DNA of 64,000 nucleotides from Mobula hypostoma (GCF_963921235.1 NC_086097.1:14880001-14944000), one strand, 5' to 3'; counted from the stretch's first letter, positions 4,630 to 50,787 are shown. Program-made: numbers and translations. Notes: a model not told the origin generated them from the letters alone.

Positions 4630-5082
4630 TCAGCTTTCATTATATTCAATCTTTTCTGCAGTAGTCTCTTTGGCATTTCCATTCTCTTTGGCATTGTTCT
4701 CTTGTTTACCGTTCTCATGACATTCAGGATCAGTGTGGTTGGGAAAAGTGTTCTCTCCGTTCAACATTCCCTCCTCTCCTGCAATCCCGTCATCCAGTAC
4801 TTCTGTTAACTTCAACTCATGGTCGCCTTCATCGTCACTGTTTAGATTTCTCAGGATGAGTGGAATTTTCGAGTCTGTGACAGTGTTCCCTAGCATGGCT
4901 ATGTTACTTTCCTCGTATTTGGGAAGGGGTGCGCTCTTGTTCCGGAGTTCCGTAAAGTGCTCACGCTTCATAGCAGCGCTCTGCACTGCTTTTTCCAAGA
5001 TCTCCTTCTCTGCTGTACGGAGCTGGATTGCCATCTTACTGTGGTACGACAGCTCTGGCTTTTCAAGCAATGACTTATCATC
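4630..5082 (-). CDS. SETD3: SETD3 last coding exon (453 bp including TGA), DDKSLLEKPELSYHSKMAIQLRTAEKEILEKAV...APLPKYEES...EKIEYNES*
   Basis: ORF 4630..5070 extended to the TTTTAG acceptor at 5083-5088. KMAIxLRxxEKEILEKAV, APLPKYEES and NGEN motifs match the SETD3 C-terminus. Confidence 0.97.
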   Translation of the reverse strand, partial: DDKSLLEKPELSYHSKMAIQLRTAEKEILEKAVQSAAMKREHFTELRNKSAPLPKYEESNIAMLGNTVTDSKIPLILRNLNSDDEGDHELKLTEVLDDGIAGEEGMLNGENTFPNHTDPECHENGKQENNAKENGNAKETTAEKIEYNES

Positions 5083-5232
5083 CTAAAATCAGAGAAACAG
5101 AGATAAGAGGAAGAGTATAAAGAGGGTGATTCGAAAAGAATAATGTTCATTTCCATTTGAAAAGGTTTAGATTTACATTTACCTGGAGACACTTACAGAG
5201 AACAATATATAGCACAGTCAGGCCCTTTGGCC

Positions 5233-8822: not shown

Positions 8823-9274
8823 GTGAATACCCATACATTTAAAATAACTTTGAAGAAGTGAGGAAGAGCAATTTAAATGGCGAACTGACACAGTGTGCCT
8901 AGGGCAGCACAGTGATGCAGCAGTTAATGCTGCTGTTGTAAGTTAGCGACTTTTTCCTAGGTTTGGAGGAAAGTATGGGGGGGCCGTCAGGAGTAGGTTT
9001 TTTTTGCACACAGGTAACATCCTGCTGGGAATGGTGGCAGAGGCAGATAAATTAAGGACATTTAAGAGGTATATGGATGAAAGAAGAATGGAGGGCTATG
9101 TGGCATGGAAGCATTAGATCGATCTCGGAGTAATTTAAAAGGTTGACATAACATTGTGGGCTGTAGGGCCTGTACTGTTCTATCTTCCATGTTCTTTAGG
9201 CAAGGCAAAAACACTTTGATCATTACACTTATCTTATCACTTGCAAATTTCATTCTGCTTTTCACAGAACTTAC

Positions 9275-9435
9275 CTCAGTGGTAGTTTTATATGTTTTTA
9301 ACAGGAGTGCAGCCCTGGTTTCAAGAAAGGTCCACAGTTTAATTTCATTATCCCAGCTTACGGGGAAATCAGAGTTTCCCAAGGTGAAGATCTTATCGAT
9401 TACATGCTCTCGAACAAGATGTTCTTTCAATTCAT
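9275..9435 (-). CDS. SETD3: SETD3 coding exon (161 bp), DELKEHLVREHVIDKIFTLGNSDFPVSWDNEIKLWTFLETRAALLLKTYKTTTE (Rubisco-LSMT substrate-binding domain)
   Basis: Inside ORF 9062..9454. Acceptor TTGCAG, donor GTAAGT. Confidence 0.98.
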
Positions 9436-9899
9436 CTGCAATTAAACAAATCATGTTTAAAGTACATTCAAACTAAGATAGATCAAAATCCTAGAGGCAC
9501 TAATTCAGCATAAGGATTACTTGGGCCGATTATATTCTGAGCAAGAAAACAGTAACACAGTTGGATTTTCATTATTTCTTGCTCCTTCCAACATTCCGCA
9601 ACTAGTAGAGCACCATCTCATTTCTGAGGTTTGTAGTAGTTACAATTGGGGGCACAGAGCTTGACTTGTTCCTGGATTTTCTCTTTTACAACTGACTATT
9701 CAGCTGAGGAAGCAGAGTTACCTTCTGTCCATTTAAATCAATATTCCTTTTCAGTCTTATGGAAGGGTTCCACACCTTCTTCCCAGTGTGCTCTGCAGAC
9801 TCGATCACAAATACAGTCAAAACTCCCCAGCGGCTCACTGGCAGCATCAGGGTTATGGGTTGTGTAGGAGGGAAGAGTTAGATTGACCATGGAGGATGA

Positions 9900-10920: not shown

Positions 10921-10956
10921 GGTTGTTGCACCCGTCTGACTCAGTACTGAATTTTA

Positions 10957-11159
10957 AACAAAAGAAAATCTGCAGATGCTGGAAATCCAAAGCAACAGAG
11001 ACAAAATGATGGAGGAACTCAGCAGGTCAGGAGGTATTTATGGAAAAGAGTAAACAGTCGACATTTCTGGTCGAGACCCCTCATCAAAATTCATGACCGG
11101 TCCTGATGAAAGGTCTCGGCCCAAAATGTCTAATGTTTGCTTTTTCACATAGATGCTGC
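10957..11159. mobile_element. Fold-back Penelope-like 3'-end insertion with 15-bp TSD (1 mismatch)
   Basis: CAGTACTGAATTTTA at 10942-10956 versus CAGTTCTGAATTTTA at 11160-11174. Inverted arms around ~11090; degenerate CTGATGA...AAAATGTC motif. Confidence 0.75.
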
Positions 11160-12465: not shown

Positions 12466-13183
12466 GTTTTGTACAATAAGCATCAATTCCTATCCTGTTT
12501 GATTGAATCACTCAGCTTTACATGCCCTTTTTAGTAAATCCAACAATAATTTAAGAAAAATAGAAAATCTTCTGATGAGTTATGTCTTTGTTTTAAAATT
12601 TGTTCTGTACATGAGATTTTCCATATCTTTGACTTAATGTGAGGGCATTGCTTAAAGGGTGAAATTACATGGACAGGCTCTCCAGGCTTGCCCTTGGGTT
12701 TACTATCTGCAGGATGATGAGAGGTACCTAAAAAGAGCAAAATTTCAACAGAGTGTCTGTGGATAAACTATTTACACTGGTCGTTGTCCTGTGATTAGGC
12801 TAGGATGAAATTCGGGGATGAAATGCTGGGAGGCACAACACTAAAGACCGGAAACGCCTGTCCCACGTTGTATCTCAATAAATAAATAAAACAATCTCAG
12901 AGCAAACATACAAAGAAGGGAAAATAGGAAGTAATACCAGAATCATTTTTACTATCACTGGTATACATCATGAAGTTTGTTGTTTTGCAGTATAACAGTG
13001 CAAATCATAACAAAAAACTATAGATTTTAATAAGATATATAATTATTAGTGCAAAAGGAGAGCAAAAATAAGTAATAAAAAGTGTAAACAACAGGAATTC
13101 TGCAGATGCTGGAAATTCAAGCAACACACATCAAAGTTGCTGGTGAATGCAGCAGGCCAAGCAGCATCTATAGGAAGAGGCGC

Positions 13184-13219
13184 AGTCGACGTTTCAGGCC
13201 GAGACCCTTCGTCAGGACT
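13184..13219 (-). ncRNA. Minimal type I hammerhead ribozyme motif, on the SETD3 sense strand
   Basis: Exact reverse complement of 13230-13265. Confidence 0.75.
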
Positions 13220-13229
13220 TCCTTCAGTT

Positions 13230-13265
13230 AGTCCTGACGAAGGGTCTCGGCCTGAAACGTCGACT
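13230..13265 (+). ncRNA. Minimal type I hammerhead ribozyme motif (Penelope-associated)
   Basis: AGUC-CUGACGA-AGGGUCUCGGCCU-GAAAC-GUC-GACU. Stem I is AGUC/GACU, stem II is short, and stem III is reduced to the palindrome ACGU. Predicted cleavage after 13261. Confidence 0.75.
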
Positions 13266-13461
13266 GCGCCTCTTCCTATAGATGCTGCTTGGCCTGCTGC
13301 GTTCACCAGCAACTTTGATGTGTGTTGCTTTAATAAAAAGTGTGGTATTTTACATGGATTCATTATCCATTCAAAAATCTGATGGCGGTGGGGAAGAAGC
13401 TATTCCTGAATCGTTCAGTGTACGTCTTCAGGCTCCTTTGCCTCCTCCTTAATGGTAGCAT

Positions 13462-13700
13462 GAAATCCGGAGTAACACACATAAAATGCTGGAGGAACTC
13501 AGCAGGTCAAGTAACATCTATAGAAACGAATGAAGTGTCAATCTTTCGGACCGACACCCTTCATCAGGAATCTTGAAGGGTCTCAGCTTGAAATGTCGAC
13601 TCTTTATTTCTTTCCTTTGATGCTACCTGACCTGCTGAGTTCCTCTGGCATTTTGTACGTGTTACTCCGGATTTCAAGCATCCGCAGCATCTCCTGTGGT
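13462..13700. mobile_element. Older fold-back Penelope-like insertion
   Basis: Arms GAAATCCGGAGTAACAC... and ...GTGTTACTCCGGATTTC (13462-13675), centre ~13570, hammerhead motifs decayed. No TSD recognised. Confidence 0.75.
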
Positions 13701-14699
13701 TGTGTTAGGAAAAATTGAAAATTGAAAGCACTACTTCCACACAAAGGAAATTTGAAACCACTTTCCCACAAAATTACAGGTGTTAAGTTAGTTGATTTTT
13801 TTTAAACATCAAAAATCATTTTTGCTGGTGTAAGGTCTCAAGAGTGGCAATGAAAATAAAGATCAATAAATGGGAGTCAAGATGATTATCTGCCAGATCT
13901 GGGTGAATGTTGCAAAAGGCTCAGGAGGCTGAGTAAATGAATCGTAACCAATGTGAACCCAGAGACAAAGATCCTGTTCTGGCTAACCTCCTCAGCTTCC
14001 TTGAGGCAGTAACCTCTCAAGGGAACCCTCAGATTTACAGAAGGTATTGGCAAAGTTCCTCATGATCAGTAATTAGTCAAACTCAGAGCAGTGCAGATTC
14101 AAGGTGAACGTGACGTTTGAAGGGGTGGATGAAGAGAGAAAAGAAAATATGCAAAAGCATGGTTATGGCAATGAAGGGATGGAGAAAATAGCAGTAAGTG
14201 GGGTTCCTGCTTTATTAGTGTCGAGAATATCAGAGCTCATAAATGTAAATATCTCAGACTGAGGAGCTTATGCAAAGTGGTCACATTTCCTCATGAGCTA
14301 CCTGTGATGTTGGCAGTGGGGAGAGATGAAAGCAGTACAACCAGGGTCTAAACGTAGAATGAATTTGGCAAAATAAGCAAGGAAACAGACATGCAAGATA
14401 TAATTTAACACAGAGAACTGTACAATATTACAATGAAAAAATAAGCAATACACGCACTTCATGAAGGAATGTTATTTCACAACTTTTAAATATTTAAATA
14501 CTCTAAACAGCTTCAGAGCAAGACAGTTTTCAAATGTGCCTTGCTGTCATGTGCAAATTTGTACAGAGTAGTCCGAGAAAGAGCAATCCGATAATGGAAT
14601 TTTAAAATTTGTAATGCATTTCTCTACTGAAAGGGGCATTGTCACAGGGCAGGAGTGAAGAACACACTTCATGAGGATACAAATTAAATAATTACATTC

Positions 14700-16090
14700 C
14701 TTCAATGGGCAGTCAACACTGCCCAAAACATCACTGGCTCCAGCCTACCTGCCATCAAGGACATATTTACAGAAAGGTGTCAGAGAAAGGCCAGCCAAAT
14801 CGTGAAGCATCCCATACCCACCCCCCCCCCCACCCCCACCTCCTCTCATAGACTGTTTGTCCCACTCCTATCAGGAAGGAGGCTATGTCGCATCCATGTC
14901 AGGACCACCAGACTCAAAAACAATTACTTAACCCAAGCAGTAAGGCTAATCATCACCTCCACCTGCTAACCCAACCCTCTAACACCCCAATCATCACTGC
15001 TTTATCATTTCCTACCAGTCGCCTTATGTTCAGACACTCCTGTGTCTAGCGTCACTTTATGGACATATAATCAATCTCTTAGACAGGGATGCGTTGCCTC
15101 ACCGGAATTATTTACTATCTATAGTGAAATGGTTCTCAGAGAAATAAAAGACCCAGATGGGATAAAAATTGGAGGTGTTAATATCAACAATATAAGATAT
15201 GCAGACGATACCATCCTAATAGCAAGTGCTGCAGAAGACCTACAAATCCTCCTAGACAAAGTAGTACAAACAAGTACAGATTTTGGTCTAACTGTCAACT
15301 GTAAAAAAAAACAAATGTATGGTAAATATCAAAAAAGCAGGATACTCCCAACTGCTAAGTGTACATCGATAACCAAGAGAGATTGAACAAATGACCAGCT
15401 TTAATTACCTTGGTAGCTTTAGATCACAAGGTGCTAGAAGTAAAGTGGAAATAAAAAGAGGAATTCCCATTGCCAAAACCAACTTCCAAAAAATGAAACC
15501 CATTTTTACCAACAGCCACACTTCTATGACAACAAGGCTTAGGCTACTGAAATGTTACGTCTGGTCAATCTTGCTGTATGCTTCCGAAACATGGACTATA
15601 ACACCAGAACTCCAAAGAAACTTAGAAGCAACAGAAATGTGCTTTCTTAGAAGAATGCTGAAAATATCATATAGAGATAGGGTAACTAATGAGACGGTAC
15701 TCCAACATGCCGATACAAAAAGATCTTTAATAAGAACATTAAATGAGAGGAAACTTAAATTTCTGGGCCATGTAAAGGGAGAAATAGAATGCCTTACTTT
15801 ATAAGGCCGTATGCCTGGGTAACGCGGAAGAGGAAGGCAAAGAAGAAAATATATGGGCACTGTGAAAGAACTAACAGATCTAAGTGTGCGAGGTATCATT
15901 GACGCTGCATGGGATCGTTCGATGTGGAGAGCCATGATCGCCCAAGCGTGTAACGCGCAAGGCACATGAAGAAGAATCAATCTCGATATATAAGCTATCT
16001 TATGTATTTATATTTATTGTGTTCTTTATCTAATGTTGTTTTTGTGTTGCATCAGATCCATAATTATTTTGTTCTTCCTTACACTTGTCT
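14700..16090 (+). mobile_element. Rex1/Babar-like 3' fragment, interrupted by an RTE LINE
   Basis: Colinear with 11490-11935 on both sides of the 15079-15974 insertion. Confidence 0.75.
15079..15974 (+). mobile_element. 5'-truncated RTE-clade LINE (RT C-half, frameshifted)
   Basis: LRQGCVASPELFTIYSE...INNIRYADD...FNYLGS...LLYASETWT...GxRGRGRQR; (GAA)n tail; TSD AATCAATCTC at 15069-15078 and 15975-15984. Confidence 0.92.
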
Positions 16091-16094
16091 ACCG

Positions 16095-16890
16095 GAAGAC
16101 CAAGGACCTGATTATTGACTTCAGGAGGAGGAAACGCGAGGTCCATGAGCCAGTCCTCATCAGGGGATCAAAGGTGGAGAGGGTCAGAAACTTTAAATTC
16201 ACTTCAGAAGATCTGTCCTGGGTCCAGCATGTAAATGCTATTATGAAGAGAGCACAGCAGTGCCTCTACTTCCTTAGAAGTTTGTGAAGATTTGGAATGA
16301 CATCTAAAAGTTCTATAGATGTGTGGTAGTAAGTATATTGGCCGGTTGCATCATGGCCCGGTATAGGAACACCAATGCCAAAGTAAAATCCTACAAAAAG
16401 TAATGGATTCGGCACAGTTCATCACTTGTAAAGCCCTCCTCACCATGGAGTACATCTACATGGACTGTACAGGAAAGCAGCATTCATCATCAAAGGGGTG
16501 GTACAGGACCTTCAGGACCCACAACATGAGGTTCAGGAACAGTTATGAACTGCGCCCCCCCCCCCACAAACATCAGATTCAGGAACCAGAGTTTCACTCA
16601 CTCCATCACTGAACTGTTCCCACAACCTACTGATTCACTTGTAATGATTCTTCTTCTCATGTTCTCAATATTAATTATCTATCTATTTATTTATTACTGT
16701 TTCTTTTGTATCTGCACTGTTTGTTACCTTTTGCGCATTAGTTGTTTGACTATCCTGTTGGGTGTGGTCTTTCAATGATTCTATTGTGATTCTTGGATTT
16801 ACAGTGAATGCCTGCAAGAAAATTAATCTCAGGATTGTATATGGTGACGTATATTTACTTTGATAGTAAATTTACATTGAATTTACTTTG
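16095..16890 (+). mobile_element. Rex1/Babar-like LINE 3' fragment
   Basis: KTKDLIIDFRR...VERVRNFKF...KRAQQCLYFLRSL; tail ends aataaatttacattgaatttactttg-like. Confidence 0.85.
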
Positions 16891-18139
16891 GACTTTGATA
16901 ATAAATGAGGACCTGCATTGGCCATGATGCTCAAGAAATGAACATGTCATCTCGACCCGAAGTCCACTGCCAGGTTTGTAATGAAAGGACAAGTTAAATG
17001 ACGTATAGAGCCCATGACTAAAAATTTTTGACTTTTCAATATAGGGGCTAACAACCAAGGTCCATGCTGTAAGGACTAATTTGAGTTGAAACAGCTATTG
17101 ATCATTTAAATCTGGAAAACCAGAGCTGCTCCAAGCAAGTTATCCTTTGGAAATGTGCTTACCTGAGCTCAAAGTGAACAGGACCAGTAGCACTCCTCCT
17201 GAACAAGCAAATAAAGAATGCCGGCCAGTATCACTCCCACTAACCCCCTGTAACAAGGATTAGCCCTCAAGTATTAATCCTCAACAATAACGATCAATTA
17301 CGCACAGAGAGGATCTGTATTTATTGATAAGTACCTTTATTATCTCAACTAACAAGCATGTGAATTTCCAGAACTGAATACTTGTGTGCACATCCACTGA
17401 GCAGTACCTCAGATTTACAAAGGAGGATCCATTAGAGGTGCATTGAAATATGAATTATTCAACAATAAATAAAATGAAGCAAGAGTGTGATTGGGTGATG
17501 TTACAAAGGTAGAAATAGGCAATGGAAATTGATGTGGTCTGGAGGTCATCTCAGAGTCAAACATAACCTGAAGATCATGAACAATATGGTTCGGTTTCAG
17601 ACAGATGACTGTCTGAGGGTCAAATGTATTGGCTTATTACCAATTTATGACAGTAACCAAAGATAATGACATCAGTCTCTAATGTTTTGTGGGAAATTTC
17701 CACTTACCCAGTCCAGTGTTGAAAGCATGGCAATTTGGAAGGAATTAGGGAGGTCAAGAAAATGCTAAAAGTTATTTCTGGAGCCATCATTGTACATTTG
17801 GAAAACCACCGTGACTTTGTGTGATGCCACCAGGGGAAAGAACGCAGATAAGAAAATATGTTGGGTGAAACAAGTCCTCAGGGAGAGTCCAAAGGGAACA
17901 GTAGAAAAGTGAGACTGGAAGATATTGGAGGTGAATCTCTGGCTACAAATGCAAAATATGAATGCAGCCATGGTGTAAACCTAACACAGCTGGTCAACTG
18001 CAGAGAGGCACTTGAAGAGAAAATGACAGAATTGAAGATGAAATCATTCGCATTTGTCCTGTATTTTTCCAGTTTTAGATTTGGAAAAATGAGGTTTATT
18101 ATCAGAGTTCATTTTATTTATCACATGTATATCAAACCT

Positions 18140-18560
18140 CCAAGAAGACCACAAACTTGTCATAGTTTGGAGGCTTGCGTGCCTCAGTGACCCAGACATC
18201 TGTGTCGGCTGGAGTCAGGACTTTATGCTTTGGCTCTTGGTAGGGTCACCAATGCCAAACAGGTCAAAGGGTAGAGGACAGACCAAGAATGGTCCACTGG
18301 TCCTCCAGGTTCGAGGGTTCAGCTCAGGGCTAAGAACGCTGTTGTTTCCGTAACAATTTTGTTTGACCAGTCAATGAAGAATCCCATATCTGAATGTGAT
18401 GGCTTTCCTGAGTCTCCCCACAGGACTTGTGTGACTGACAATAGTGAAAACTGAGAAGAAGCTACTGACATGATGAAGGAAGTCCTGAACACCGCCAGAG
18501 ATGGAGGACCTTCAGTGCTGCCCTAAATGCCAGCAGCATAATGGGCAGAAAGTAAGTACA
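18140..18560 (+). mobile_element. Bipartite RTE/Expander-like non-autonomous element
   Basis: The 5' part resembles RTE/Expander 5' UTRs as I recall them (ggtagggtcaccaatgccaaacaggtc). The 3' part gagatggaggaccttcagtgctgccctaaatgcc...aagtaagta resembles an RTE ORF end and tail. Confidence 0.55.
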
Positions 18561-20029
18561 TTGAAATATACAGCAAAGTGTGTCAGTTGCTCCCAGGGTG
18601 TGCTAGGGGCTGCCCCCACGTGCTGCTAAACATTCTGGCACCAACATAGTATGCCGACAATGCTTGGCAGATCACAACAAACAATAAAAGAACAGCAAAA
18701 CAAGCCCCATTCCTCCCTGCCACCCACCTACCCATACAAATACATGATTCTCCACGACAGGACAGGTCATTTCCAGCCTCCAAAGGACTCGCAGATTTGC
18801 AGATTCACAGAGTAGGCACCTTGAGATAAATACTCTCGAAGCACTTGGGGCAGAACTAATGTAAGAGGAATCATCTGCCTAGCTCATCCTTTGTTGAAAG
18901 TAAATACAAACATAGGCTTCACCATTAAGGTCTGATACAACTAACAGCTGGAATCCAAAATTAGAACAAAAGGAGGGGAAGAAACAGCCCATAAATAAAG
19001 AGCAGGTTACTCAAATCCTTTTAAAGCCTTTTACTTGAAAAAAATAGATAACACTAACAGGGAAAAGGACAATATTAATAGCAGTTCTCAATATATCTGA
19101 ATGACAAATCAAAGTAGCCTTTTAACAATTACTGTAAAGGCAATAAATAAAAGCATTTGCCATCCTTACTGCTGACCCAGTATTACTTAGGAAAATCTGA
19201 GAAATAGCAAAAGATAGTCATTGATGACTGAAGTAAATTATGTGGATGAAGAGACACAAATGAGCCAGGGCACCATTATACATCCACAGCTGGCCAATGT
19301 CCACAAAGACTTGTCAGCAGCAAGTTCAAAACCTCACTGATGCTGTAGATCATAAGAATTGCTTCACGGATGATCTCACTTCAAGAATTCATTATAACTT
19401 ATTCAGATTTTTCTTGTAATTCAAGAGAGTCAGTTTGAGTTTTCCCATTACTGGCGGCCTCTAAAGTCCAGCCCTGTGTCCCCATCGTGAGGGGTGGAAA
19501 TGAGTAAGGCTGGCCAGCTGTTGAAGCTGTATAGGCCAATGCCCTGTACAGAAACATTGATGAACTCCAATCACACCATTGAGGAGCGGGGAGGTCATCA
19601 ATGGCCTATGCTCTACTGTGAGCCAAGGGCTCAACAAGACGACGGCATTACTGGCTGCTGACTGGGTGGCATAGTGTTACACCTCACAGAGCTGCCTCGC
19701 AGGACCAGGGACCAGGGTCAACCTGGACCTCCAGGTGCTGCCTGTGTGGGTTTCCACTCACATCCCACAAAAAAAAGTGTACGTGGATAGGGTAATAGAT
19801 ATCTGTAAAATGTAGATGAGTGGGGGGGAGGGGGAGAGAGAATAAGGGAAGAGTAGGTTAGGATAGGATTGTTGTAAACACGCTTTCTAAGTGCTCAGCG
19901 TAGACTTGATAACACAAATAGTCTGCTTCCATGCTTTCTCTCTCTATGATTCCACTGGTCTGGTCATAGCGAGATCCACACCGACCACACCCACACCCAC
20001 CACCGTACAATGCAGGAGTTAGGTTTTAC

Positions 20030-20115
20030 CTTCAGTCATGGAAAACACCCGGAGGAAAGCCAACAGCTGGGCTGAGATTGGAGGCTCACTGCAATGCAGA
20101 GCAAATACACTGGAC
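20030..20115 (-). CDS. SETD3: SETD3 coding exon (86 bp), SSVFALHCSEPPISAQLLAFLRVFSMTE
   Basis: Translated by hand; matches SETD3 SSVFALHFTEPPISAQLLAFLRVFCMTE. Acceptor CCTCAG, donor GTAAAA; phases fit both neighbours. Confidence 0.97.
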
Positions 20116-20349
20116 CTGAGGGAAGCACAGAGATATCAGAGTTTATAATAATAACAACAACTTATTTACAGAGCACTTTTCACACAGATCTGCTTTACAA
20201 TGGGATAAAGTACAAACATGAAGAAAACTGATTAAAAAAAGATGTTAGCTAAAAGCAAAGTTAAGTAAATAGTTCATTCCTGGTGTTTAAAAGTGTCAAG
20301 TGAGTCTGCATCCCTTGTAGTTTTACTTATTGAATTTCACAGTTTAGGA

Positions 20350-20940
20350 CTGTGACATGCCAATTATCTTTTGCCTCCACTACATTGGTGAAACCTGCCG
20401 TAAATTGGGAACTGCTTCATTGAGAACCTCTGCTCCATCCACCAAAAGCAACTTCCCATTGGCCAAACATGTTAATTCCAGTTCCAACATGTCGGTCCAT
20501 GGTCTCCTATTGTGCATAGATGAAGCCACCCTCAGGGTGGAGGAGCAACATCTTATATTAAATCTGGGTAGCCTCCAACCAGATGGCATCAATATCAATT
20601 TCTTCTTCCAGTAAAAGAAATTTTTCCTCCCCCTCTCTGGTCTTTTACCTCTTCTCACTTACCTATCACTTCCCTTTGGGTCCCCTCCTCCTTCCCTTTC
20701 GTCTATGGTCCACTCTTCTCTCCTATAGGAATCCTTCTTCTCCAGCCATTGACCTTTCCCATCTACCTGACTTCACCTATCACCTTCCAGCTATCCTCTC
20801 ACCACCCCCCCCCCACCTTTTAATATTGTTGTCTTCCCCCCTTCTTTTCAGTCCTGAAGAAGGGACTCGGGCCAAAACATCGACTGTTCATCGATGCTGC
20901 CTGACCTGTTCAGTTCCTCCTGTATATTGCGTGTGCAGCT
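20350..20940 (+). mobile_element. Penelope-like element 3' portion: GIY-YIG endonuclease remnant, pyrimidine-rich UTR and decayed hammerhead motif
   Basis: ORF 20357..20614 'CLHYIGETCRKLG...AKHVNS...MSVHGL...LRVEEQHLILNLGSLQPDGINI'. CAGTC-CTGAAGA-AGGGACTCGGGCC-AAAACATC-GACTG at 20849-20886. Confidence 0.88.
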
Positions 20941-22119
20941 TTTGAGGGACTGTTTACATTTAAGAGACCGGCAGAAGAAAACCTGCGAGCTTGAGCAGGG
21001 TTTTAAAATGAAAACAATTTTGTGATGTACTCCGGTCCCATCATCAGCTTCTACAATGGCACCAAATCTGAGCACAGGCTGATTACGTTTCCCCTGTAAT
21101 GGCGTTAGATTTTCACTCTTGCAGCTCACAATAAAGTACCAGTAGACAGAACAGCACATCACTAAAGGACGATTCAACTCAGCTATTTAAGTTAATAGAT
21201 AGTAATCTAGTTGGGCTGCATTATTAATGTACAATCTAATGCAGCCGATATCTAGTAATTAAGCTTTCAGTGTGTGCGTTTGTTCTGCTCTGGAAATTGA
21301 AAAAGTGAGAACTGAACCCAAGGAATACTGATCATTATCCTTTTTGGTGATTTTTCGGTGCACTCCCTGGTACTTTTGTCCTGCAGTGCAATACAGCTTT
21401 CTTTTAGCTGGGAAACACGATGAGAGATCTTACGGCTTGAGTTTGCTGTAAGTGGTATTCCTGTACTCAGTTAACAAGAAGTAGAATATAACCAAGAAAT
21501 AAACAATCTGCTGGGGGAACTCAGCAGGTCAAGCAGCAACTAAAGGGGGAAAGAATTTGTTGAAGATTCAAGTAAAAACTTTGCATTAGGACCAATTAGG
21601 ATTCCGGCTTCTGTAGCCTCTTTTATGTCCTTGGATATACAGTACCAAGATTAATCAAATCAGTGAGTGAGGAGTGAAAAGAGAACAGTTGTTGTTAAGG
21701 CTTTATTGTAGAGCAATAGGACACACGTCATGCTAGGTATAATGATTTCTTATTGATCTGGGCAGAAGCCATATGGAAGATTGGGACATTCACAGGAAAA
21801 TCTTTCTCATAGAGAACAGCTATGAACACCTTGGCTAGTCAAGGATTTTACACAGTGAATTTGTGATCAGAGAAAATTGTACTAAACATTTTTTTTGTTT
21901 TGGGGCACTTCTTGCTTTTAACCAGTTCAGTTTTATCACTCAAATCCACTTCAGTTGGTACTGCTATGTAAAGAAAACTCCACATTTCTTTGGACCTAAT
22001 GAGATATTAAAATGAGGGAAAATGAAAAACTGCCCACGTTCAAATTAACCAGAATTGGTATCAGAACTTGATATTAGGGGAACCAGGATGTTTTATCCCA
22101 TTAATGCTATAAATAATAC

Positions 22120-22380
22120 GGCCATAAGCCATTCAGCCTATTGAGTCTGTTTTGTCATTCAACCATAGCTGCTTTATTATCCCTTTCACCCCATTCTTCT
22201 GCCTTCTCTTCGAAACCTTTGATGCCCTCACTAACGAAGAGGCTATCAACCTCTGCTTTAAATATATCCAATGACTTGGCCTCTACAGCCATATGTGGCC
22301 ATGAGTTCTGCAGATTCACCACTCTCTGGGTGAAGCAATTCCTCATCTGAGTTCTAAATGGATGCCCCTCTATTCTGAGG
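22120..22380 (-). mobile_element. CR1 3' fragment
   Basis: ORF 22155..22346 MRNCFTQRVVNLQNSWP...EAKSLDIFKAEVD. Confidence 0.85.
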
Positions 22381-23689
22381 AATAATATGACTCAGGCAAG
22401 GATGAGGTCAGTTCAGTGTTAAGTTTCATCTCTGTAAGGCTGTCTTTTGGAATCACAGAAAATGTTCTGAAGCACGTAGCATTTTGGAGAACACATTATA
22501 TCTGCTTCCTTTATTAACTATTACTTTAATTAGTTGTGATACATACTCAAAATGAAAAGGCAGAGCATGTAAAAAATGAACACTTCTGTCAGAGAAGCAC
22601 AGAATCTTTATGGTGAATGCAGCATTTAATTTGTTCTGATCAATTTAACTCACTAGAAGTTTCAGAAATAATACAATCCTCGTCCGGCAGAAGAACCTAG
22701 ACTGCACTTAAAGCTTGGGGAAACAGATACTTGGTGGGTAGAAAATGTACTTTGTCAGTCCATGGAAAGTCTGAATTAACCATGTCAAAGCTTCGTGCAT
22801 CAATTTAGAACATACATAAATAAAGAAAAAGTCTTCAGCTCCTCAATTTACTTCCAGTTTCTCTTTTATTAATTGAAGTACATTCAGCCTATTCACCTAA
22901 CGTTATAAATTAGCTCTGAATCAGAAATTTATGGCACAGAAACTACTAACTCTGCTCATGGTGTACACATGCTCAGTCGAGAAACAGCTACTCAGACTAA
23001 TTAGAGTTCCTCATTCTCCATCAGACCAAAGACACAAGAGCAGAATTAGGCCATTCGGCCCATCAAGTCTGCTCCACCATTCCACTGTGGCTGATCTATT
23101 ATCCCTCTCAACCCCATTTCTCCTGCTTTCACCATGTAACCTTTGATGCTCTGACTAATCAAGAACTTATTAGCCAGTATCCTGGCCAGCTACGGCATGT
23201 GAACTGTCCACAGACTTACTGAACATGATGAGTGTGTGCAAACACACCAGCAGCTGTTAGCGAAACTCAGTTAACACATTCCTGGTTGCGGAACCTCAGG
23301 AAATGTGAACTGAATTACCTTAAACCTATTGGCCTCCTTGCAAGGGGTCATTCCTATTCAGCACATTTAGGACATTCAGTTTTACATACTTCAGTTAAAT
23401 CTCTCACAGTCCTTTGTCTCCGACAAACAATTACATTTTAGGCAATCTTTCCTCAAAGCTAATCCTTATGGATCAGTCCTGCACCTTCTTTCATGCTATC
23501 AGATTCTTCCTGCAAAGTAACAACCAGAAATTACAGATGTGGTCAAAGGAGCTTTAAAGTTTAGTTTTATTTGTCACATGTACATGGAAACATAGTGAAA
23601 TGAATTGTTTGTGTCAATGACCAACACAATCTGAGATGTGCAGTGGACAGGCCACATGGATCACTACGCTCCAGGCACCAACATAGCAC

Positions 23690-23860
23690 GGTTATAATTT
23701 ATTGGTCCTAACCCACACCTCTTTGAAATGTGGGAGGAAACTGGAGCATCTGGAGGAAACTCACATAGTCAGGGGGAGGACGTACAAATTCTTTACTGAC
23801 AACAGAGGGAATTGAGCCACGTTCTTAACGCTGGATCTAACCACTGCACTACCATGCCGG
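23690..23860 (-). mobile_element. V-SINE fragment
   Basis: tgtgggaggaaactggagcatctggaggaaactcaca core. Confidence 0.7.
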
Positions 23861-24279
23861 TGAGACCTGATTTCCCTGCCTCGGCCGAAATCCTGAATGC
23901 CATCTTAACCACATTATTTTCCCATTCCCCCATGAGTGGGCCACATCTTATCCCATGTTTACAGAGATCATAATTCCCTATTTGTTGCCACCCATTTAGC
24001 ACAATTAAAGATGGTGACCTTTTGAATTTACTGCTGGCAGAAGCCTCATCATCAGCCGTTTGAGAAATTGTGGCTGTATTGCCCATGGGCCTCCACTGAT
24101 TAAAACTAATGGACAGGAAACCATGGGAGATGCAGACCTCACCAGCAAAATTGGGAAATGAATGCCATTGAAGTATATTAAACAATTCATAATTGGATAT
24201 TTCTTTAATGATGGAAAAAGTAAATATATTATTATATACACTTTTCAGAACAAACTGAATTTGTTTGCTGTAATAATTA

Positions 24280-24428
24280 AACTGCTGGAGGAACTCAGTA
24301 GGTCAAATATCATTTGGTCAAAACTCTTGCATCAGGCCTCTGCTTCCACAGTCGCTGCCTGCATGACTGAGTTCCTCCAGGACTTTATATTTTGGCCCAG
24401 ATTCCAGCACCTACAATCCCTGTGTCTC
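24280..24428. mobile_element. Highly decayed fold-back Penelope-like insertion
   Basis: CTGGAGGAACTCAGT ... ACTGAGTTCCTCCAG inverted pair, followed by the family 3' end. Confidence 0.6.
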
Positions 24429-25067
24429 TGAATTTATTTGATCCCAGTATAGCAAACGTCTCAGTTGTAAAGTATTTAACTTACTTTCAAACCCTCTGCA
24501 GTCTCTCTTCTCTGCAGACCAACAAGCCTCTAATTTAGTCCTATTGATTTTCACTAAAGTAAATTGCTCCACAAGTCGTGGTTGTACCTCCAGCTCAGGA
24601 ATCCACACCCACCCCCAAACATCTTCACCTCTCTTCCTCCATTTCTTTCTCAAAAAATGCTGGCAATGTCAAAAATATCCCAGAAAAATAAATGCATGAA
24701 TAAACATTCCTCGAAACCGTATATTTTCTAAATTTGCACTATTTGATTTAATTGTGAAATCCTTTATAAGTCACCATACAGATAGAAACTCATGTCCGAG
24801 GAGTTGATAGGCGAGTGCTCTCAGTGTCTGGAGACAATGAGTGGAATTGGAGGGAAGTTCACCCAGCCGAATGCAGGTGCTGGTGGCGGGACTGGTTGGG
24901 GCTCTGGTACTACCTCTGCCTCACACTGCCAGAGACACGGGTTCAATCCTCAGCTGCTGCCTCTGCTGAGTTTGCACGTTCTCCCTGGGTTTCCTACAGA
25001 TGCTCCAGTTTCCTCTTACATCCCAGAGACGTACAGGTCTGTTGGTTGGCTGACCAACGTGAAGTAC

Positions 25068-25738
25068 GTAAGAACATAAGATATAGGAGCAGGAGTCGAC
25101 CATTCAATATCATGGCTGATCTGTCCGTGGACTCATCTCCACTTACCTGCCTTTTCCTCATATCCCTTAATTCCCCTACTATGCAAAAATCTATCCAACC
25201 TTGTTTCAAATATAGTTACTAAGGTATCCTCCACTGCTTCAGTGGGCAGAGAATTCCACAGATTCACCACTCTTTGGGAAAAGCATTTCCTCCTCACCTC
25301 CATCCTAAATTTACTCCCCAACTCTTGAGGCTATATCCCTTATAGTTCTATTCCCACCTACCAGTGGAAGCTACCTGCCTCTATCTTTTCTATCCCTTTC
25401 GTAATTTTATATGTTTCTATAAGATCTCCTCTCATCTTTCGGAATTCCAGCGAGTACAGTCCCAGGTGACTCAACATCTCCTCATAGTCTAACTCCCTCA
25501 TCTCTGGAATCAACCTGGTGAAAATCCTCTGCACACCCTCCAAAGCCAGTATATCCTTCCTTAAGTAAGGAGACCAGAACTGCACGCAGTACTCCAAATG
25601 CGGCCCCACTAATACCCTACACAGTTGCAGCATAACCTCCCTGTGCTTAAATTCGATCCCTCTAGCAATGAAGGCCAACATTCCATTCGCCTTCTTTTAC
25701 CATTTAAACAATAATCTGATCTTCCATCTTTCCTTCCA
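25068..25738 (-). mobile_element. CR1 3' fragment
   Basis: ORFs 25358..25681 (MLAFIARGIEFK...PHLEYCVQFWSPYLRKD) and 25133..25321; short-repeat tail at ~25068. Confidence 0.9.
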
Positions 25739-25744
25739 AAGTGG

Positions 25745-28700
25745 AAAACCAAAAGACCATAAGACATAGGAGCAGAATTAGATCATTTGGCACATCAAGT
25801 CTGGCCACTGCAGCTGCCTGTGCATAAATTCCACAAATTTACCACTCTCTGGCTATAAAAATTCCTTCACACCTCTGTTTTAAGTGGACACCCCTCTATC
25901 CTGAGGCTGTGCCCTCTTGTCCTAGACACTGCACCATGGGAAACATCCTTTCCACCTCTGCTCTGCCTGGGCCTTTCAGCATTCAAAAGGTTTCAGTGAG
26001 ATTCCCCTCATCCTTCAAAATTCCAGCGAGTACAGACCCCGAGCTATCAAATGTCCCTTGTATGATAACCCTTTCATTACTGGAATCATCCATGTGAACC
26101 TCCTCTGAACCCTCTCCAATGCCAGCACATCTTTTCTTAGATGAGGAGCCCAAAACTGTTCAAAATACTCAAGGTGAGGCCTCACCAGCGGCTTATAAGC
26201 CTCAGCATCACATCCCTGCTCTTGTATTCTAGACTCTTGAAATGAATGCAAACATGGCATTTGCCGTCCTCACCACCGACTCTACTGCAAGTTAACTTTT
26301 AGGGTGTTCTGCAGAAGGACTCCCAAGTCCCTTTGCATCTCAGATTGTTTGGATTTTCTCCCTGTTTAGAAAATAGTTGGCACATTTATTTCTAATACCA
26401 AAGTGCATGGCCATGCATTTTCCTACAGTGTATTTCATTTGCCACTCTCTTGCTATTCTCTATATCCTTCTGTAGCCTACCTGTTTCCTCAACACTACTT
26501 GCCCCTCTACCAATCTTCATATCATCTGCAAACTTGGCAACAAAGCCATCTATTCCATCATCTAAATCATTGACATACAGCATAGAAAGAAGTGGTCCCA
26601 ACACTGACCCCTGCAGAACACCACTAAACACCTGCAACCAACCAGAAAACGATCCTTTTTATTCCCACTCGCTGCCTCCGATCAATGCTCTAACTACGCT
26701 AGAAACTTCCCTGTAATTCCATAGGCTCTTAACTTGGTAAGCAGCCTCATGTGTGGCACCTTGTCAAAGGCCTTCAGAAAGTCCAAATTATCAACATCAC
26801 TGCATCCCCTTTATCTATCCTACACGTAATCTCCTCAAAGAATTCCAGCAGGTTCCTCAGGTAAGATTTTCCCTTTAAGAAAACTATTCTGACTTTGTCC
26901 TATCTTGTCATGTATCACCAAGTACTCCATCACCTCATCCTTAACAATCGACTCCAACATCTTCCCACCACTGAGCTCAGGCTAACTGGTCTATAATTTC
27001 CTTTCTGCTGCCTTCCTCCTTTCTTTAACATAGAACATAGAATAGTACAGCACAGTACAGGCCCTTCGGCCCACAATGTTGTGCCGACCCTCAAACCCTG
27101 CCTCCCTTATAAGCCCCCACCTTAAGTTCCTCCATATACCTGTCTAGTAGTCTCTTAAACTTCACTGGTGTATCTGCCTCCACCACTGACTCAGGCAGTG
27201 CATTCCACGCACCATCCACTCTCTGAGTAAAAAACCTTCCTCTAATATCCCCCTTGAACTTCCCACCCCTTACCTTAAAGCCATGTCCTCTTGTATTGAG
27301 CAGTGGTGCCCTGGGGAAGAGGTGCTGGCTATCCACTCTATCTATTCATCTTAATATCTTGTACACCTCTATCATGTCTCCTCTCATCCTCCTTCTCTCC
27401 AAAGAGTAAAGCCCTAGCTCCCTTAATCTCTGATCATAATGCATACTCTCTAAACCAGGCAGCATCCTAAGTGGAATGACATTTGCAATTTTCCAGTCCT
27501 CTGGCACTGTGCCAGAGTCCAATGATTTTTCAAAGATCATTACTAATGCCTCCACAATCTCTACCGCTACCTCTTTCAGAACCCTAGGGTGCAGTTCATC
27601 TGGTCCGGGTGATTTATGTACCCTTAGGTCTTTCAGCTTTTTGAGCACCTTCTCCCTTGAACAGTAAATGCACTCACTTCTTTTTCCTCACACCCTTTAA
27701 CATCTGGCACACTGCTAGTGTCTTCCACAGTGAAGACTGATGAAAATACCCATTTAGCTCATCTGCCATTTCCTTGGTCCCCATTATTATTTCTCCAGCT
27801 TCATTTTCTAGCAGTCCTATATCCACTCTATCTCGCTTTTTTTTTTACATACCTAAGAAAGCTTTTACTATCCACTTTGATATTGTTTGCTAGCTTGCTT
27901 TCATATCATCTTTTTCCTCCTAATGATTCTTTTAATTGCTCTCTGTAGGGTTTTAAAAGCTTCCTAATCCTCTGTCTTCCCAATAATTTTTGCTTTGTTG
28001 TATGGTCTCTCTTTTGCTTTTACATTAGCTTTGATTTCCCTTGCCAGCCACGGTTGACTATTTCACCATTTGAGTATTTCTTTGTTTTTGGAATACATCT
28101 ATCCTGCACGTTCTCATTTTCCCCGAAACTCATGCCATTGCTGCTCTGCTGTCATCCCTACCAGCATCTCCTTCCAATTTACTTTGGCCAATTCCACTCT
28201 CATACTACTGTAATTTCCTATGCTCCACTGGAATACTGCTACATCAGACTTTACTTTCTCCCTATCAAATTTCAAGTTGAACACAATCATATTGTGATCA
28301 CTGGTTCCTAAGGGTTCTTTTACCTTAAGCTTCCAGTTCATTACATACTACCCAATCCAGTTAGCTGATCCTCTAGTAGGCCCAACAACAAGCTGCTCTC
28401 ATTCAACAAACTCACTCTCTTGGGGTCTATTTTCAACTTGATTTTCCCAGTCGACCTGCAAGTTGAAATTCTCCATGACGATCATAGCATTGCCCTTTTG
28501 ACAGGCCTTTTCTATTTCCTGATGTAATCTATGGTCCACGTCGCAGCTAATGTTGGGAGGCCCGTATGTAACTGCCATCAAGGTCCTTTACCCTTGTAGT
28601 TTCTTAACTCAACCTACAAGAATTCAACATCTTCTAATCCTATATCACATCTTTCTACTAATATGATGCCATTCTTTATTAGCAGAGCCACGCCACCCTC

Positions 28701-29690
28701 TCTGTCAACCTTTTTATCCCTCTGATGCATCGTGTAACCTTGGACATTCAGCTCCCAAATACAACCATCCTTCAGCCACAATGCAGTGGGCCACAACATT
28801 ATACCTGACAATCTGTAATAGTGCAACAAGATCATCCACCTTATTTCTTATACTCCGTGCATTGAGATATAACACTGAACGCTGCATTTGCTACCCTGTT
28901 TGATTCGGCATCCCTAATGCACTGATACTCACCCTGCTGGCTGCAATTATGTCCTATTATCTGCCTGCCCTTCCCGACAGTCTGACTGCATGCTCTCTTT
29001 GCTTTTTTGCCATCTGTCCTATCCTGTGTCCCTTCACTCCGGTTCCTACCCCTGCTATATTATTTTAAACCCTCCCCAACAGCTCTAACAAATCTGCCCG
29101 CAAGAATACTCGTTCCCCTTGGTTTCAGGTACAACCCATCACATTTGAACAGGTCATACCTCCTCCACAAGAGATCCCAATGACCTAAGAACCTGAAGCC
29201 CTGCCCCCTGCACCAGCTTCTCAGCCACACATTAATTTGCCAAATCATCCTATTTCTACCCTCACTGGCACGTGGCACAGGTAGCAATCCAGAAATTACT
29301 ATCCGGGAGGTCCTGCTACTCAGCTTTCTGCCTAGCACTCTAATTTCCCTTTTCAGAACCTTTTTGCTCTTCCTTCCTATGTCATAGCTACCAATATGTA
29401 CCAAGACATCTGGCTGTTCTCCCTCTCTCTCCAAGATGTTGTGGATGCGATCTGAAGCGTCCTGACCTGAGAGGCAGGCAACATATCATTCGGGGCGTCC
29501 CATTCACATCCACAGCATCTCCTGTCTGCTCCCCTGATTATTGAATCCCCTATCACTACTGCTCCCCTCTTCTCCGTTTTCTTTTCTGCAGCACAGACCC
29601 ATGCTCAGTGCCAGTAAGCCGGTCTCCGTGGCATCCCCCGGGAGGTTATCTCCCACAACAGTAAACAAAGCAGTATACTTATTATTGAGT
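25745..29690 (-). mobile_element. Long decayed CR1 LINE: ORF1 SGNH-esterase domain, APE endonuclease and RT
   Basis: ORF1 29060..29434 (PDVLVHIGSYD...ISGLLPVP...DGLYL); endonuclease 28114-28835 (PLGTSDHNMI); RT 26392..26637 (GVLQGSVLGPLL...KFADD); C-terminus 26015..26260. Confidence 0.92.
27027..27468 (-). mobile_element. Younger 5'-truncated CR1 nested inside the long CR1
   Basis: Near-intact C-terminal peptide (RMLPGLESMHYDQRLRELGLYSLERRRMRGD...RFFTQRV) with a (catagaa)n tail at 27029-27042, interrupting the host RT after 'WKIANVIPL'. Confidence 0.88.
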
Positions 29691-29794
29691 AATAAGTATA
29701 TTACTTATAAAGCAATATACTCTCAGGGAAGAGAACTGGTGCCTAGGTAGTGAGTAGAATCTGAGAGCAGTTGATGGGAACGTGGGATTACTTA

Positions 29795-30080
29795 ATTTAT
29801 TTTATTTAGGGATACAGTACAGAACAGGCCCTTCTGGCCCAACGAGCTGCACCATCCAGAAACCCACCTATGTAACCCTAGCCTAATCACAGGACAATTT
29901 GCAATGACTAATTAACCTATTGACTGGTATGCCTTCAGACTGTGGGAGGAAACCGGAATACCCGGAGCAAATCCATGCAGTCACGGTGGGAGGACGTGCA
30001 AACTCCTTATGGACAGTGGCAGAACTGAGCTCCCACACCCTGAGCTGTAATAGTGTTGTGCCAACCACTAGGCTACCATA
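29795..30080 (-). mobile_element. V-SINE (HE1-like), near full length
   Basis: Head, V-domain and (TAAA)n tail are all recognisable. Confidence 0.8.
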
Positions 30081-30369
30081 GTGTTTATTCAGCTAAGTTA
30101 ATTTGGAGAAGTGTCAATTGATTTTTGTTTGGAACAGGCTCATTGGGCCAAAAGGCCTGTTTGTGTGAGCAGGCCAGGACGGTGACAGCAAATCAGGACA
30201 GTTTATTGTCACTTCCATCAAGGTGCTCTGAAATTCCTTGCTTTAGTGCCAGTCAGAGAATAAACAACATACTTGATAATAAATGGTAAATACAACAATG
30301 AATATAGCAACAAACACAAAAATAACAGAATGATGAGAAAGGGAAAGAACCCCGTTATAGTGTACTTAC

Positions 30370-30536
30370 GTTGGAATACCAGCACGTGCCAGAACTTCTG
30401 CTTTCATTGCATAGAGTCGGTCACTTTTACTTACTCCCAGTTTTATCTTCACTCTATCGTGAGAGTTATTATTGAAGAAAAATCCATTGTGTATCACAAA
30501 TTCAGCATTGGATCGAGTCCCATAGAAAATGTAGAT
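30370..30536 (-). CDS. SETD3: SETD3 coding exon (167 bp), IYIFYGTRSNAEFVIHNGFFFNNNSHDRVKIKLGVSKSDRLYAMKAEVLARAGIP-T
   Basis: Translated by hand; contains the conserved IFYG tyrosine. Acceptor TTTCAG, donor GTAAGT. Confidence 0.98.
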
Positions 30537-30899
30537 CTGAAAAATTGAGTATTTTCTGTGTGAGTTGAGTGCAGACTATTTGGCAAATTACTGTAGCCAT
30601 GCAACTCCAAGTCTCAGATCCTAGTGCTCAGACAGCAAGTCTCCTCTTTGAATAAGAGTTTTTAGCAGCCTTGGCTTAACTTGCAAATACATTTTCCAAA
30701 AAGGATTCAGGGCTTACACTATTTTCAACTCCTTTTTACAGGGAGCCCTAAAAAGAAAACTTATCGTAAATAACTAACAAAGTGCAGAGGTACAAGAGTA
30801 AAATGTTCTTATTGTTTGAACTGTACAATGAAAAATCACTTGAAATAGAATGAGCAAACAAGGCAATTGTAGGAATGAACTAAAATACTACACTGCACT

Positions 30900-31130
30900 G
30901 CCCAGCAACCCACCAAATTAATCCTAGCCAAATCACAGGACAAAGTTACAATGACCAATTAACTTATTAACTGGTACATCTTTGGAGAAAACCAGAGAAC
31001 CCGTGGGAAACCCACACAGTCATGGGGAGGAACATGCAAACTCCTTACAGATGGTGCTAGAACCAAAAACCAAACTTTGGTGCCCCGATTTCTAATAGAG
31101 TTGTGCTAACTATAACTCTACAATGGTGCC
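30900..31130 (-). mobile_element. V-SINE
   Basis: Same family core as the other copies. Confidence 0.7.
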
Positions 31131-31254
31131 TTATACTTCAATAGTCTAACTCCTTAGTCTAGCTCCTTAGCACCTTTAATCCTAAAAAATTTTACATTGT
31201 CATCCAGGTTTGATATTTCAGGAATATACTAATAAAGTTTTGTTCCATCATTTA

Positions 31255-38969: not shown

Positions 38970-39430
38970 CAGAGACACAGAGCTGGAATCTGAAGTAACA
39001 CATAAAGTGCTGGAAGAACTCAGCAGGCCAGGCAGCATCTGAGGAGGGGAAGAGACACTCGACATTTTGGGTTGAGACCCTTCATCAGGACTGGGTCAGG
39101 CTGAGACTCTACAACCGGTCCAGATTTATTTTATTTTTATCTAGAGATACAGAATGGTAACAGACCTTTCTGGCCAACCAAGCTTATGTAACCCAATTAC
39201 ACTCATGTGACCAATTAACTTGCTAATCTATGCCTTTGGAACGTAGGAGGAAACTGGAGCATGGGGTTGCTGATGTTGCATAGTGTTACACAAACAATTA
39301 CGCTACCATGTTGACCTAGTAAGGGCCACAACTCGAAGTGTTGACTATCCATTTCCCTCCACACATACGGTCCGACCTGCTCAGTTCTTCCAGCACTTTG
39401 CATGTTGCTCTTAAAATTCATCATGCCTTT
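38970..39430. mobile_element. Fold-back Penelope-like insertion split by a V-SINE (~39125-39310)
   Basis: AAAGTGCTGGAAGAACT (~39004-39020) is inverted at ~39383-39399; a SINE sits in the centre. Confidence 0.7.
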
Positions 39431-40937: not shown

Positions 40938-41075
40938 AAACACAAGAGATTCTGCAGATGCTGGAAATCCAGAGTAACACACACAAAATGCTGGAGGGAA
41001 ACTCAGCAGGTCAGGTCACATCTATGGAGAGGAATAAACAATCGACATTTTGGGGCAAAACCCTTCATCGGGACA
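40938..41075 (-). mobile_element. Single-arm Penelope-like 3' end
   Basis: aaacacaagagattctgcagatgctggaaatcc...cccttcatcgggac, the same unit as the fold-back arms. Confidence 0.8.
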
Positions 41076-50649: not shown

Positions 50650-50787
50650 TGCCCTGATGAGGGGTCTTGGCACAACAAAATGTTGACTGTTGATTCATTT
50701 CCATAGATACTACCTGATCTGCTGAGTTCCTCCAGCATTTTGTGTGTATTGCTCTGGGTTTACAGCATCAGCAGAATCTCTTGTGTC
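50650..50787 (+). mobile_element. Single-arm Penelope-like 3' end
   Basis: CTGATGA-GGGGTCTTGGC... then gatactacctgatctgctgagttcctccagcattttgtgtg...cagaatctcttgtg. Confidence 0.8.

Follow-up and report, generated by a model that had tools for sequence, protein, structure and literature searches.

Does a 245-bp insertion that carries a hammerhead ribozyme motif on each strand give the SETD3 gene of Mobula hypostoma a self-cleaving intron, or is it the mark of something else? The question is raised by a 64,000-nucleotide (nt) stretch of this genome (GCF_963921235.1, NC_086097.1:14880001-14944000; hereafter the window, the numbering of which is used throughout), in which the insert occupies positions 13086-13330. 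The insert is very probably a recent, extremely 5'-truncated insertion of an endonuclease-bearing Penelope-like element (PLE), in which two terminal copies of about 100-134 nt lie head to head. The PLE terminal sequence brought the hammerhead motifs with it as passengers.

The insert is bounded by perfect 13-bp direct repeats, TAATAAAAAGTGT (13073-13085 and 13331-13343; 13/13 identical by repeat search), which represent its target-site duplications. These limits had been described in an earlier account made without database searches (the sequence-only reading), together with 101-bp inverted arms containing one mismatch, and both descriptions agree with ours. The true arms lie at 13119-13219 and 13230-13330, each of 101 nt with 10 nt between them, and their sole mismatch (13148 T versus 13301 G; pair 30/183) falls at a CpG site, the pair being kept in 26 of 30 family copies. 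The repeat search itself returned arms of 105 nt with 98% identity (13115-13219 and 13230-13334), the outer 4 nt of which are chance pairing with letters of the duplications. That reading had also called the insertion palindromic, which holds for the arms but not for the insert as a whole: the left 33 nt (13086-13118), which it had missed, are unpaired and lie outside the palindrome. On the minus strand they form a tail (...GAATTCCTGTTGTTT), the extreme 3' end of the PLE, which is present on a single arm. The tail-bearing arm (13119-13219, minus strand) is PLE 3'-terminal sense sequence beginning at hammerhead helix I, as its identity to GIY-YIG-linked sequence shows. The tail-less arm (13230-13330, plus strand), defined by repeat search and pairwise arm comparison, has the same sense sequence and stops 33 nt before the 3' end of the element. 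Between the two lies the 10-nt loop TCCTTCAGTT (13220-13229, plus strand), with which the plus-strand arm extends 10 nt farther upstream into the PLE.

Each strand of the insert reads AGUC-CUGACGA-A-GGGUCUCGGCCU-GAAACGUC-GACU (in DNA, AGTC-CTGACGA-A-GGGTCTCGGCCT-GAAACGTC-GACT), on the plus strand at 13230-13265 and on the minus strand at 13219-13184. The catalytic core, CUGACGA ... GAAA ... GUC, is complete on both strands. The claim of one minimal motif per strand was borne out by a pattern search, in which CTGANGA-N(5-30)-GAAACGTC matched exactly twice in the 64 kb (plus 13234-13261, minus 13215-13188) and in 0 of 100 shuffles of the window. The nucleotides previously proposed as cleavage sites, C13261 (plus) and C13188 (minus), coincide in position with C17, after which the cut is predicted. 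There is no helix III loop; A15.1, C15.2, G16.2 and U16.1 in GAAACGUC make up a self-complementary ACGU, which permits an intermolecular helix III.

The arms were assigned to a PLE through a search of the genome (3.48 Gb in 200 contigs) for the GIY-YIG domain. This gave 27,350 first-look candidates, of which 150 were scored; 39 passed an E-value of 1e-3, and 30 loci of about 3.2 kb each were fetched. The arm, from helix I to the tail, was present with 88-97% identity in 13 of these 30 loci and with 75-76% in two more, and in five (L049, L059, L052, L057 and L060) it lies on the same strand about 350-370 nt downstream of the GIY-YIG match. Locus L044 contains an open frame of 529 residues that matches RVT_1 (residues 80-214) and, after it, GIY-YIG (437-500), the canonical order for endonuclease-bearing PLEs, in which a C-terminal GIY-YIG endonuclease follows the reverse transcriptase; in L052 the GIY-YIG frame stops about 300 nt before helix I. 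The sequence preceding helix I is ...CTCTTCCTTCAGTT directly followed by AGTCC (tccttcagtt before AGTCC) in 14 of the 17 arm matches at the GIY-YIG loci, while L054 is one letter off (tctttcattt) and L055 and L060, of the older family with 75-76% identity, read otherwise. Because the same letters precede helix I in those 14 matches, the loop of the insert can be identified as the PLE sequence before helix I. Exact matches in the genome number 50,638 for a 22-mer that covers helix I together with the letters before it; a 24-mer of the tail has 37,203. By these identities each arm is the 3'-terminal ~100-134 nt of a very abundant PLE, in keeping with the Penelope-like link that the sequence-only reading had drawn. 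Four PLE loci of 10 kb contained copies that are nested, truncated and mixed with fragments of long interspersed elements (LINEs), such that no clean full-length unit could be derived.

When the genome was searched with the 245-bp insert, 1,155 first-look candidates came up; 40 were scored and 30 copies fetched. Each of the 40 scored matches covers the insert in full and is 94-100% identical to it. Among the 30 that were fetched, the left end (...CAACAGGAATTC) stays constant, the right end varies by a few nt and the flanks are all different, with exact flanking repeats of at least 8 bp in 29 copies and of 12-16 bp in 28, versus 3-7 bp in a mismatched-flank control. The constant end, the ragged opposite end and the variable length of the duplications indicate target-primed reverse transcription. 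That the SETD3 insertion is young, as had been supposed, agrees with its perfect duplications, its single arm mismatch and its 99% identity to other copies.

The same features bear on the alternative that the insert is a miniature inverted-repeat DNA transposon (MITE) or a hairpin small-RNA gene. Long inverted arms would be expected of either, and weak Rfam matches to microRNA precursors were obtained (best mir-676, 33.8 bits versus a cut-off of 61), but these are far under threshold and reflect hairpin shape only. DNA transposons of this type have inverted repeats that run to both ends and a duplication of fixed length, whereas the inverted repeat here stops short of the left end, at the 33-nt tail, and the family duplications vary from 12 to 16 bp. 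With one end constant and the other ragged, with junctions that vary among copies, and with arms that are PLE ends, this alternative is very improbable.

How usual such structures are was apparent from an unselected sample, consisting of every tail match (n=35) in the first 2.45 Mb of one contig (C1:0-2.45 Mb). Fifteen of the 35 have the exact upstream 22-mer at the expected offset and hence a longer 5' part, three of these being also fold-backs (L065-L067); the other 20 comprise 10 short head-to-head fold-backs, six solo stubs, two long copies and two complex ones. Short fold-backs account for at least 13 of the 35 tail-bearing copies, the junction and the duplication being individual to each. 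When positions were expressed on a reference (L049:1701-2945; BLAST ends accurate to about 3 nt), the tail was found on a single arm in 16 of 16 head-to-head pairs, the tailed arm reaching position 1240. The partner arm stops at 1197-1216 in 15 of the 16 (24-43 nt before the 3' end) and at 1163 in one; the tail-less arm of the insert ends at 1209.

Two further kinds of variant were seen among the copies. Three of the 30 full-length copies (L009, L011 and L030) have the same ~8 extra nt (...TTAAACGC, as read on the strand shown), placed after the duplication and before the constant end, which suggests an occasional start of reverse transcription farther downstream on the template. In L085 (C1:63660-64460) and L094 (C1:743160-743960) an inverted upstream segment abuts the sense part without any duplication of that segment, and these look more like a twin-priming-type inversion than a fold-back.

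The most likely route to the insert, judging from published work and from the structures seen, would involve two cuts and two complementary DNAs (cDNAs). The PLE protein would cut both target strands about 13 bp apart, giving rise to the 13-bp duplication, and each target 3' hydroxyl would prime reverse transcription of PLE RNA, one from the distal start and the other from an internal start about 33 nt upstream. The minus-strand copy would thereby begin at helix I and take in everything up to the true 3' end, the 33-nt tail with it, and the plus-strand copy would begin 10 nt before helix I and finish at the tail-less end, both cDNAs having stopped near helix I and been joined via a 2-nt AG microhomology. 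Frangieh et al. (2024, PMC11167929) found that a PLE protein purified from a lizard element cuts both target strands and extends them, and that it begins reverse transcription at two adjacent internal sites bounding a 30-40-bp tail; the protein is predicted to dimerise. The family is thereby a valuable natural record for the study of transposons: hundreds of young, sharply delimited fold-backs with a one-sided tail, 12-16-bp duplications and mirrored arm variants are the footprint expected in a genome if PLE proteins cut and prime both strands, as the one lizard element does in vitro.

Several points weigh against this account. Dual priming is deduced from how the copies are built and from experiments in vitro with a lizard element rather than observed in the insert's own family, and self-priming was favoured by Arkhipova et al. 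(2013, PMC3846280). An older neighbouring fold-back (13458-13700) better fits a snap-back on short CCTTC/GAAGG complementarity. The exact 24-nt junction of the insert occurs 66 times in the genome, versus 4 and 1 times for two other junctions that were tested, an excess that pure once-only de novo joining does not predict. The RVT_1 score in L044 (28.7 bits) is slightly below the Pfam cut-off of 29.6 bits, and the PLE may belong to any of three clades (Penelope/Poseidon, Neptune or Nematis). The hammerhead models of Rfam, to which the sequence-only reading had looked, gave no support, in that no hammerhead family was present among the 18 cmscan matches for 12800-13900 at E-values up to 10; such a miss would be expected of a motif that has no helix III hairpin. 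As regards the insert junction itself, a simple snap-back was considered and rejected: a 10-nt unpaired loop cannot self-prime in register.

The 66 copies that share one junction call for separate treatment. Across 30 of them, pair 9/204 is C.G in 13, T.A in 16 and discordant in one; pair 42/171 is A.T in 24, G.C in four and discordant in two; and pair 63/150 is C.G in 23 and T.A in four. The mean arm-to-arm mismatch is 1.13 per 94 pairs, and the mean difference from the majority is 4.6 positions. Given these mirrored variants and the low arm mismatch, the arms were therefore identical at birth in copies derived from different source variants. The inner ends of truncated PLE copies and of fold-back arms also gather at the 5' margin of the hammerhead: reference positions 1096-1116 (window 13217-13237; helix I starts at 1109) hold 14 of the 26, where a uniform spread would put about 4.6. 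An RNA end might account for this, as might a block by the small CCUUCAG/CUGAnGAAGG stem-loop or some other feature, and the clustering hints that a structured region or an RNA end sets the stops of PLE cDNAs.

One explanation of the subfamily is that the 245-bp fold-back is a non-autonomous element, a transcribed hairpin master having been retrotransposed as a unit by PLE proteins to give the 66 copies. Copying of this kind would account for 66 occurrences of the exact junction where two others have 4 and 1, for the coverage of the whole 245 bp in 40 of 40 scored matches, and for the distinct flanks of all 30 copies, 29 of them with their own duplication of at least 8 bp. It sits poorly with variants that are mirrored on both arms (pairs 9/204 and 42/171) and with 4.6 mean differences from the majority as against 1.13 between arms, since arm-specific differences should build up unless one arm re-templates both in each cycle. 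Both ends of the junction also fall in the hot spot, no more than about 10 nt from helix I, where 14 of 26 inner ends lie, so that recurrence is possible. We regard the hairpin master as possible but less likely than not. Either the junction may be a hot spot that is struck again and again, or fold-back RNA may be recopied with both arms re-templated from one.

More tentatively still, PLE fold-backs may be self-renewing palindromes, in which cDNAs from both cut strands pair and the junction is inherited; we consider this rather unlikely. Once a head-to-head stub had arisen and been transcribed, one cDNA would pass through the loop and so become complementary to the other, and the sense arm alone would template both daughter arms. 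If true, self-renewal would jointly explain the 66 one-junction copies, the mirrored variants and the near-perfect match of the arms inside copies that are not themselves alike, and it would lend in vivo support to dimeric two-strand priming by PLE proteins.

Conservation of the hammerhead motif in the family had been put forward as a check on its reality. The CUGANGA/GAAA/GUC core did prove to be retained: among the 30 family copies it is intact in the tail-bearing arm in 28, in the other arm in 25 and in both in 24. As to covariation, the motif hardly varies in a family this young and speaks neither way: among 126 sampled arms, 46 are identical to the insert copy and the others have scattered single changes; the pairs of helices I and II barely vary, and the sole recurrent change in helix II is one-sided (U-G to U-A). 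At 10.1-11.1 the insert has G-U (GGGU...GCCU), a wobble that still pairs. A C at 11.1 was found in L033, L055 and L057; among the 126 arms it was counted seven times (in 7 of 40 listed variants).

Sequencing runs of four related organisms provide a side view of the same family. At window position 13253 (mirror 13196), C makes up 14%, 26%, 38% and 71% of contig depth in the four, and the PLE family occurs in several related organisms with differing major variants. Contigs of four out of 13 listed runs, all of which are RNA only by guess, have a very high family-level depth over 13070-13328 and continue upstream into the PLE at 13218-13223; they show neither RNA ends, strand nor expression, and their depth is not usable for transcription or cleavage.

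Could the insert nonetheless be an active intronic self-cleaving ribozyme that affects processing of the SETD3 pre-mRNA? The core letters are complete on both strands, and the isolated 40-nt motif has helices I and II in its minimum-energy structure, but in that same fold the core GACG pairs with CGUC. As the sequence-only reading had foreseen, a transcript of the insert in either direction consists of one sense motif and its perfect complement. The minus-strand RNA is predicted to fold into a single hairpin of -217.5 kcal/mol (z -28.3; 0 of 200 shuffles as good), and enforcing helices I and II with a free core gives -151.4 kcal/mol, a cost of 66 kcal/mol. Helix III would need a second sense copy and only the complement is present; self-cleavage from the locus is therefore unlikely on these folding predictions. 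Published in vitro activity of such motifs is low and is seen only in dimeric or trimeric constructs (Cervera and de la Pena 2014, PMC4209133). The insertion is moreover young, one among tens of thousands, and not a conserved feature of the gene. An active ribozyme acting on SETD3 is accordingly regarded as extremely improbable.

Insertions made from hammerhead-cleaved RNA were considered as a further source of the copies and rejected. Only one of 26 inner copy ends lies at the predicted cut (L095), where a 5-nt microhomology explains it, and 0 of 6 solo copies start there; no fossil trace of cleaved templates is therefore seen in the copies. The lizard PLE study likewise records no reads that end at the hammerhead cut site (PMC11167929).

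The host gene was identified from its coding segments. A search of the genome for the Rubis-subs-bind domain gave minus-strand matches in the window at 9275-9463 and 4996-5091. The former (PF09273, 30.3 bits) lies in an open frame at 9062-9472 (minus strand), 58 residues of which align to human SETD3 residues 388-445 with an E-value of 6e-25, and is the coding segment downstream of the insert. Upstream, a Pfam scan of stop-to-stop open frames (126 frames, 13366 to 32751, minus strand) revealed a frame at 20022-20135 with a weak Rubis-subs-bind match (16.7 bits, under the 21.6-bit cut-off), which was then confirmed against solved SETD3 structures and which matches human SETD3 residues 363-392 (E 1.2e-9). 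The insert is placed in a SETD3 intron because these two segments flank it. It lies between consecutive coding segments of a SETD3 orthologue on the minus strand, as the sequence-only reading had held. SETD3 is transcribed from the minus strand, and its pre-mRNA therefore carries the motif at 13219-13184 within a hairpin of about 100 bp.

For SETD3 this should have little consequence, the insert being one of tens of thousands of PLE stubs with its motif locked in a hairpin. The main consequence predicted for the transcript is a perfect intronic double-stranded RNA of about 100 bp, at most a possible substrate for RNA editing or small-RNA pathways. The locus also bears on annotation: where they are not identified as PLE ends, such stubs will be taken for MITEs, for microRNA hairpins or for new ribozyme arrangements.

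Other remnants of mobile elements surround the insert. On the minus strand of the SETD3 region, frames with reverse-transcriptase (RVT_1) fragments, an OSK/GDSL-lipase-like frame and an ALKBH8_N-like frame (E 7.5e-10) were noted at 26395-26810, 31795-32220, 29063-29485 and 31449-31868; these are probably other retroelement remnants or captured fragments. At least nine further PLE 3'-end copies lie in the 64 kb, with 71-94% identity and a density of about one per 6-7 kb, and the four that were checked have their own duplications. They include fold-backs at 551-768 (duplication GAAGAAATTCTTC), 10956-11159 and 42279-42388 (duplication AGATAAATTATACTG), a solo copy at 40938-41074, and additional copies at 38978-39092, 50699-50777, 20850-20908, 48860-48919 and 21509-21546. 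The older neighbour at 13458-13700 (plus strand) is a decayed fold-back in the opposite orientation, with its tail at the right, a different junction and about 71-73% identity to the young arm.

Elsewhere in the genome, GIY-YIG copies occur in local arrays at C130:557000-577000 (L061), C18:109.59-109.61 Mb and C46:0.62-0.63 Mb. In the C130 array the arms recur each 4.9 kb with two GIY-YIG matches per period, the GIY-YIG spacing being irregular. Several top-scoring GIY-YIG copies lie near contig ends, those on C1, C5, C11, C21, C67 and C75 being within 110 kb of the contig starts. The 30 nt before helix I (…cttactcactcttccttcag, then tt; L049:2780-2808 and other PLE-linked arms) resemble in sequence a branch point, a polypyrimidine tract and a CAG acceptor. 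A spliceosomal intron of Drosophila virilis Penelope is reported to end at the 5' limit of helix I (PMC4209133).

Similar motifs and similar insertions have been described in other systems. Dimeric PLE hammerheads are reportedly the subject of work by Lunse et al. in 2017. The minimal hammerhead ribozymes (min-HHRs) of metazoan PLEs, as set out by Cervera and de la Pena (2014, PMC4209133), have a conserved core, no helix III loop, a palindromic 15.2-16.2, a conserved G10.1-C11.1 pair and a short helix I; they lie in the flanking repeats and are mostly solitary, with occasional opposite-strand pairs 100-700 bp apart in Schistosoma. Like them, the insert motif is of type I with a CUGANGA ... GAAA ... 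UH core, no helix III loop, C-G at 15.2-16.2 within ACGU, a 4-bp helix I and a place in the PLE terminal repeat region, and it is present in many thousands of copies, most of which stand alone; it also has the one extra A between the core and the helix II strand (CUGACGA-A-GGGU) that the same paper lists. It differs in having a 4-bp helix II (GGGU/GCCU), against 7-8 bp in Schistosoma, and G-U rather than the conserved G-C at 10.1-11.1, and in that no more than 10 nt separate its two motifs, each the exact complement of the other. Judged by its sequence against the features given there, the motif shares all of them except for the U at 11.1, which accords with the minimal type I class assigned to it earlier.

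The insert also resembles the non-LTR retrozymes of animals, that is, those not related to long terminal repeat elements, which are short, non-coding and PLE-related, carry type I hammerheads and have been proposed to derive, as non-autonomous elements, from PLE terminal repeats (Cervera and de la Pena 2020, PMC7229834; Li, Clavereau and Pollet 2026 preprint, 10.64898/2026.07.22.740005). In a retrozyme the repeats are direct and in tandem, and its two sense ribozymes can give rise to circular RNAs, whereas the insert is an inverted pair with a single sense ribozyme per transcript, and the retrozyme cycle therefore cannot run. Twin priming by LINE-1 (L1) inverts a different segment of one RNA, without duplicating that segment. 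The insert would share with it the priming of a second cDNA by the second target 3' hydroxyl and an inverted 5' part within one duplication, but both arms of the insert copy the same segment, which would need two templates or self-copying.

The insert agrees point by point with published PLE insertions, which typically consist of inverted, truncated copies placed head to head, one end of the unit bearing a 30-40-bp tail (Arkhipova et al. 2013, PMC3846280; Craig et al. 2021, PMC8557442). As in the architecture described there and in PMC11167929, the insert has a head-to-head arrangement, a 33-nt tail on one arm, a duplication that encloses the entire unit, a junction at which microhomology is slight or absent, and a partner arm whose end is the expected internal start of reverse transcription. 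It differs from that architecture in that both copies are reduced to the terminal stub of about 100-134 nt, and the duplications of its family measure 12-16 bp against 8-10 bp in rotifer examples (PMC3846280). The sequence-only reading had left it open whether this arrangement was on record; it is already described, being a standard PLE insertion footprint with a known passenger ribozyme (PMC3846280, PMC8557442). What sets the insert apart from that architecture is that its exact junction is common to a subfamily of 66 copies, in which variants are mirrored on both arms.

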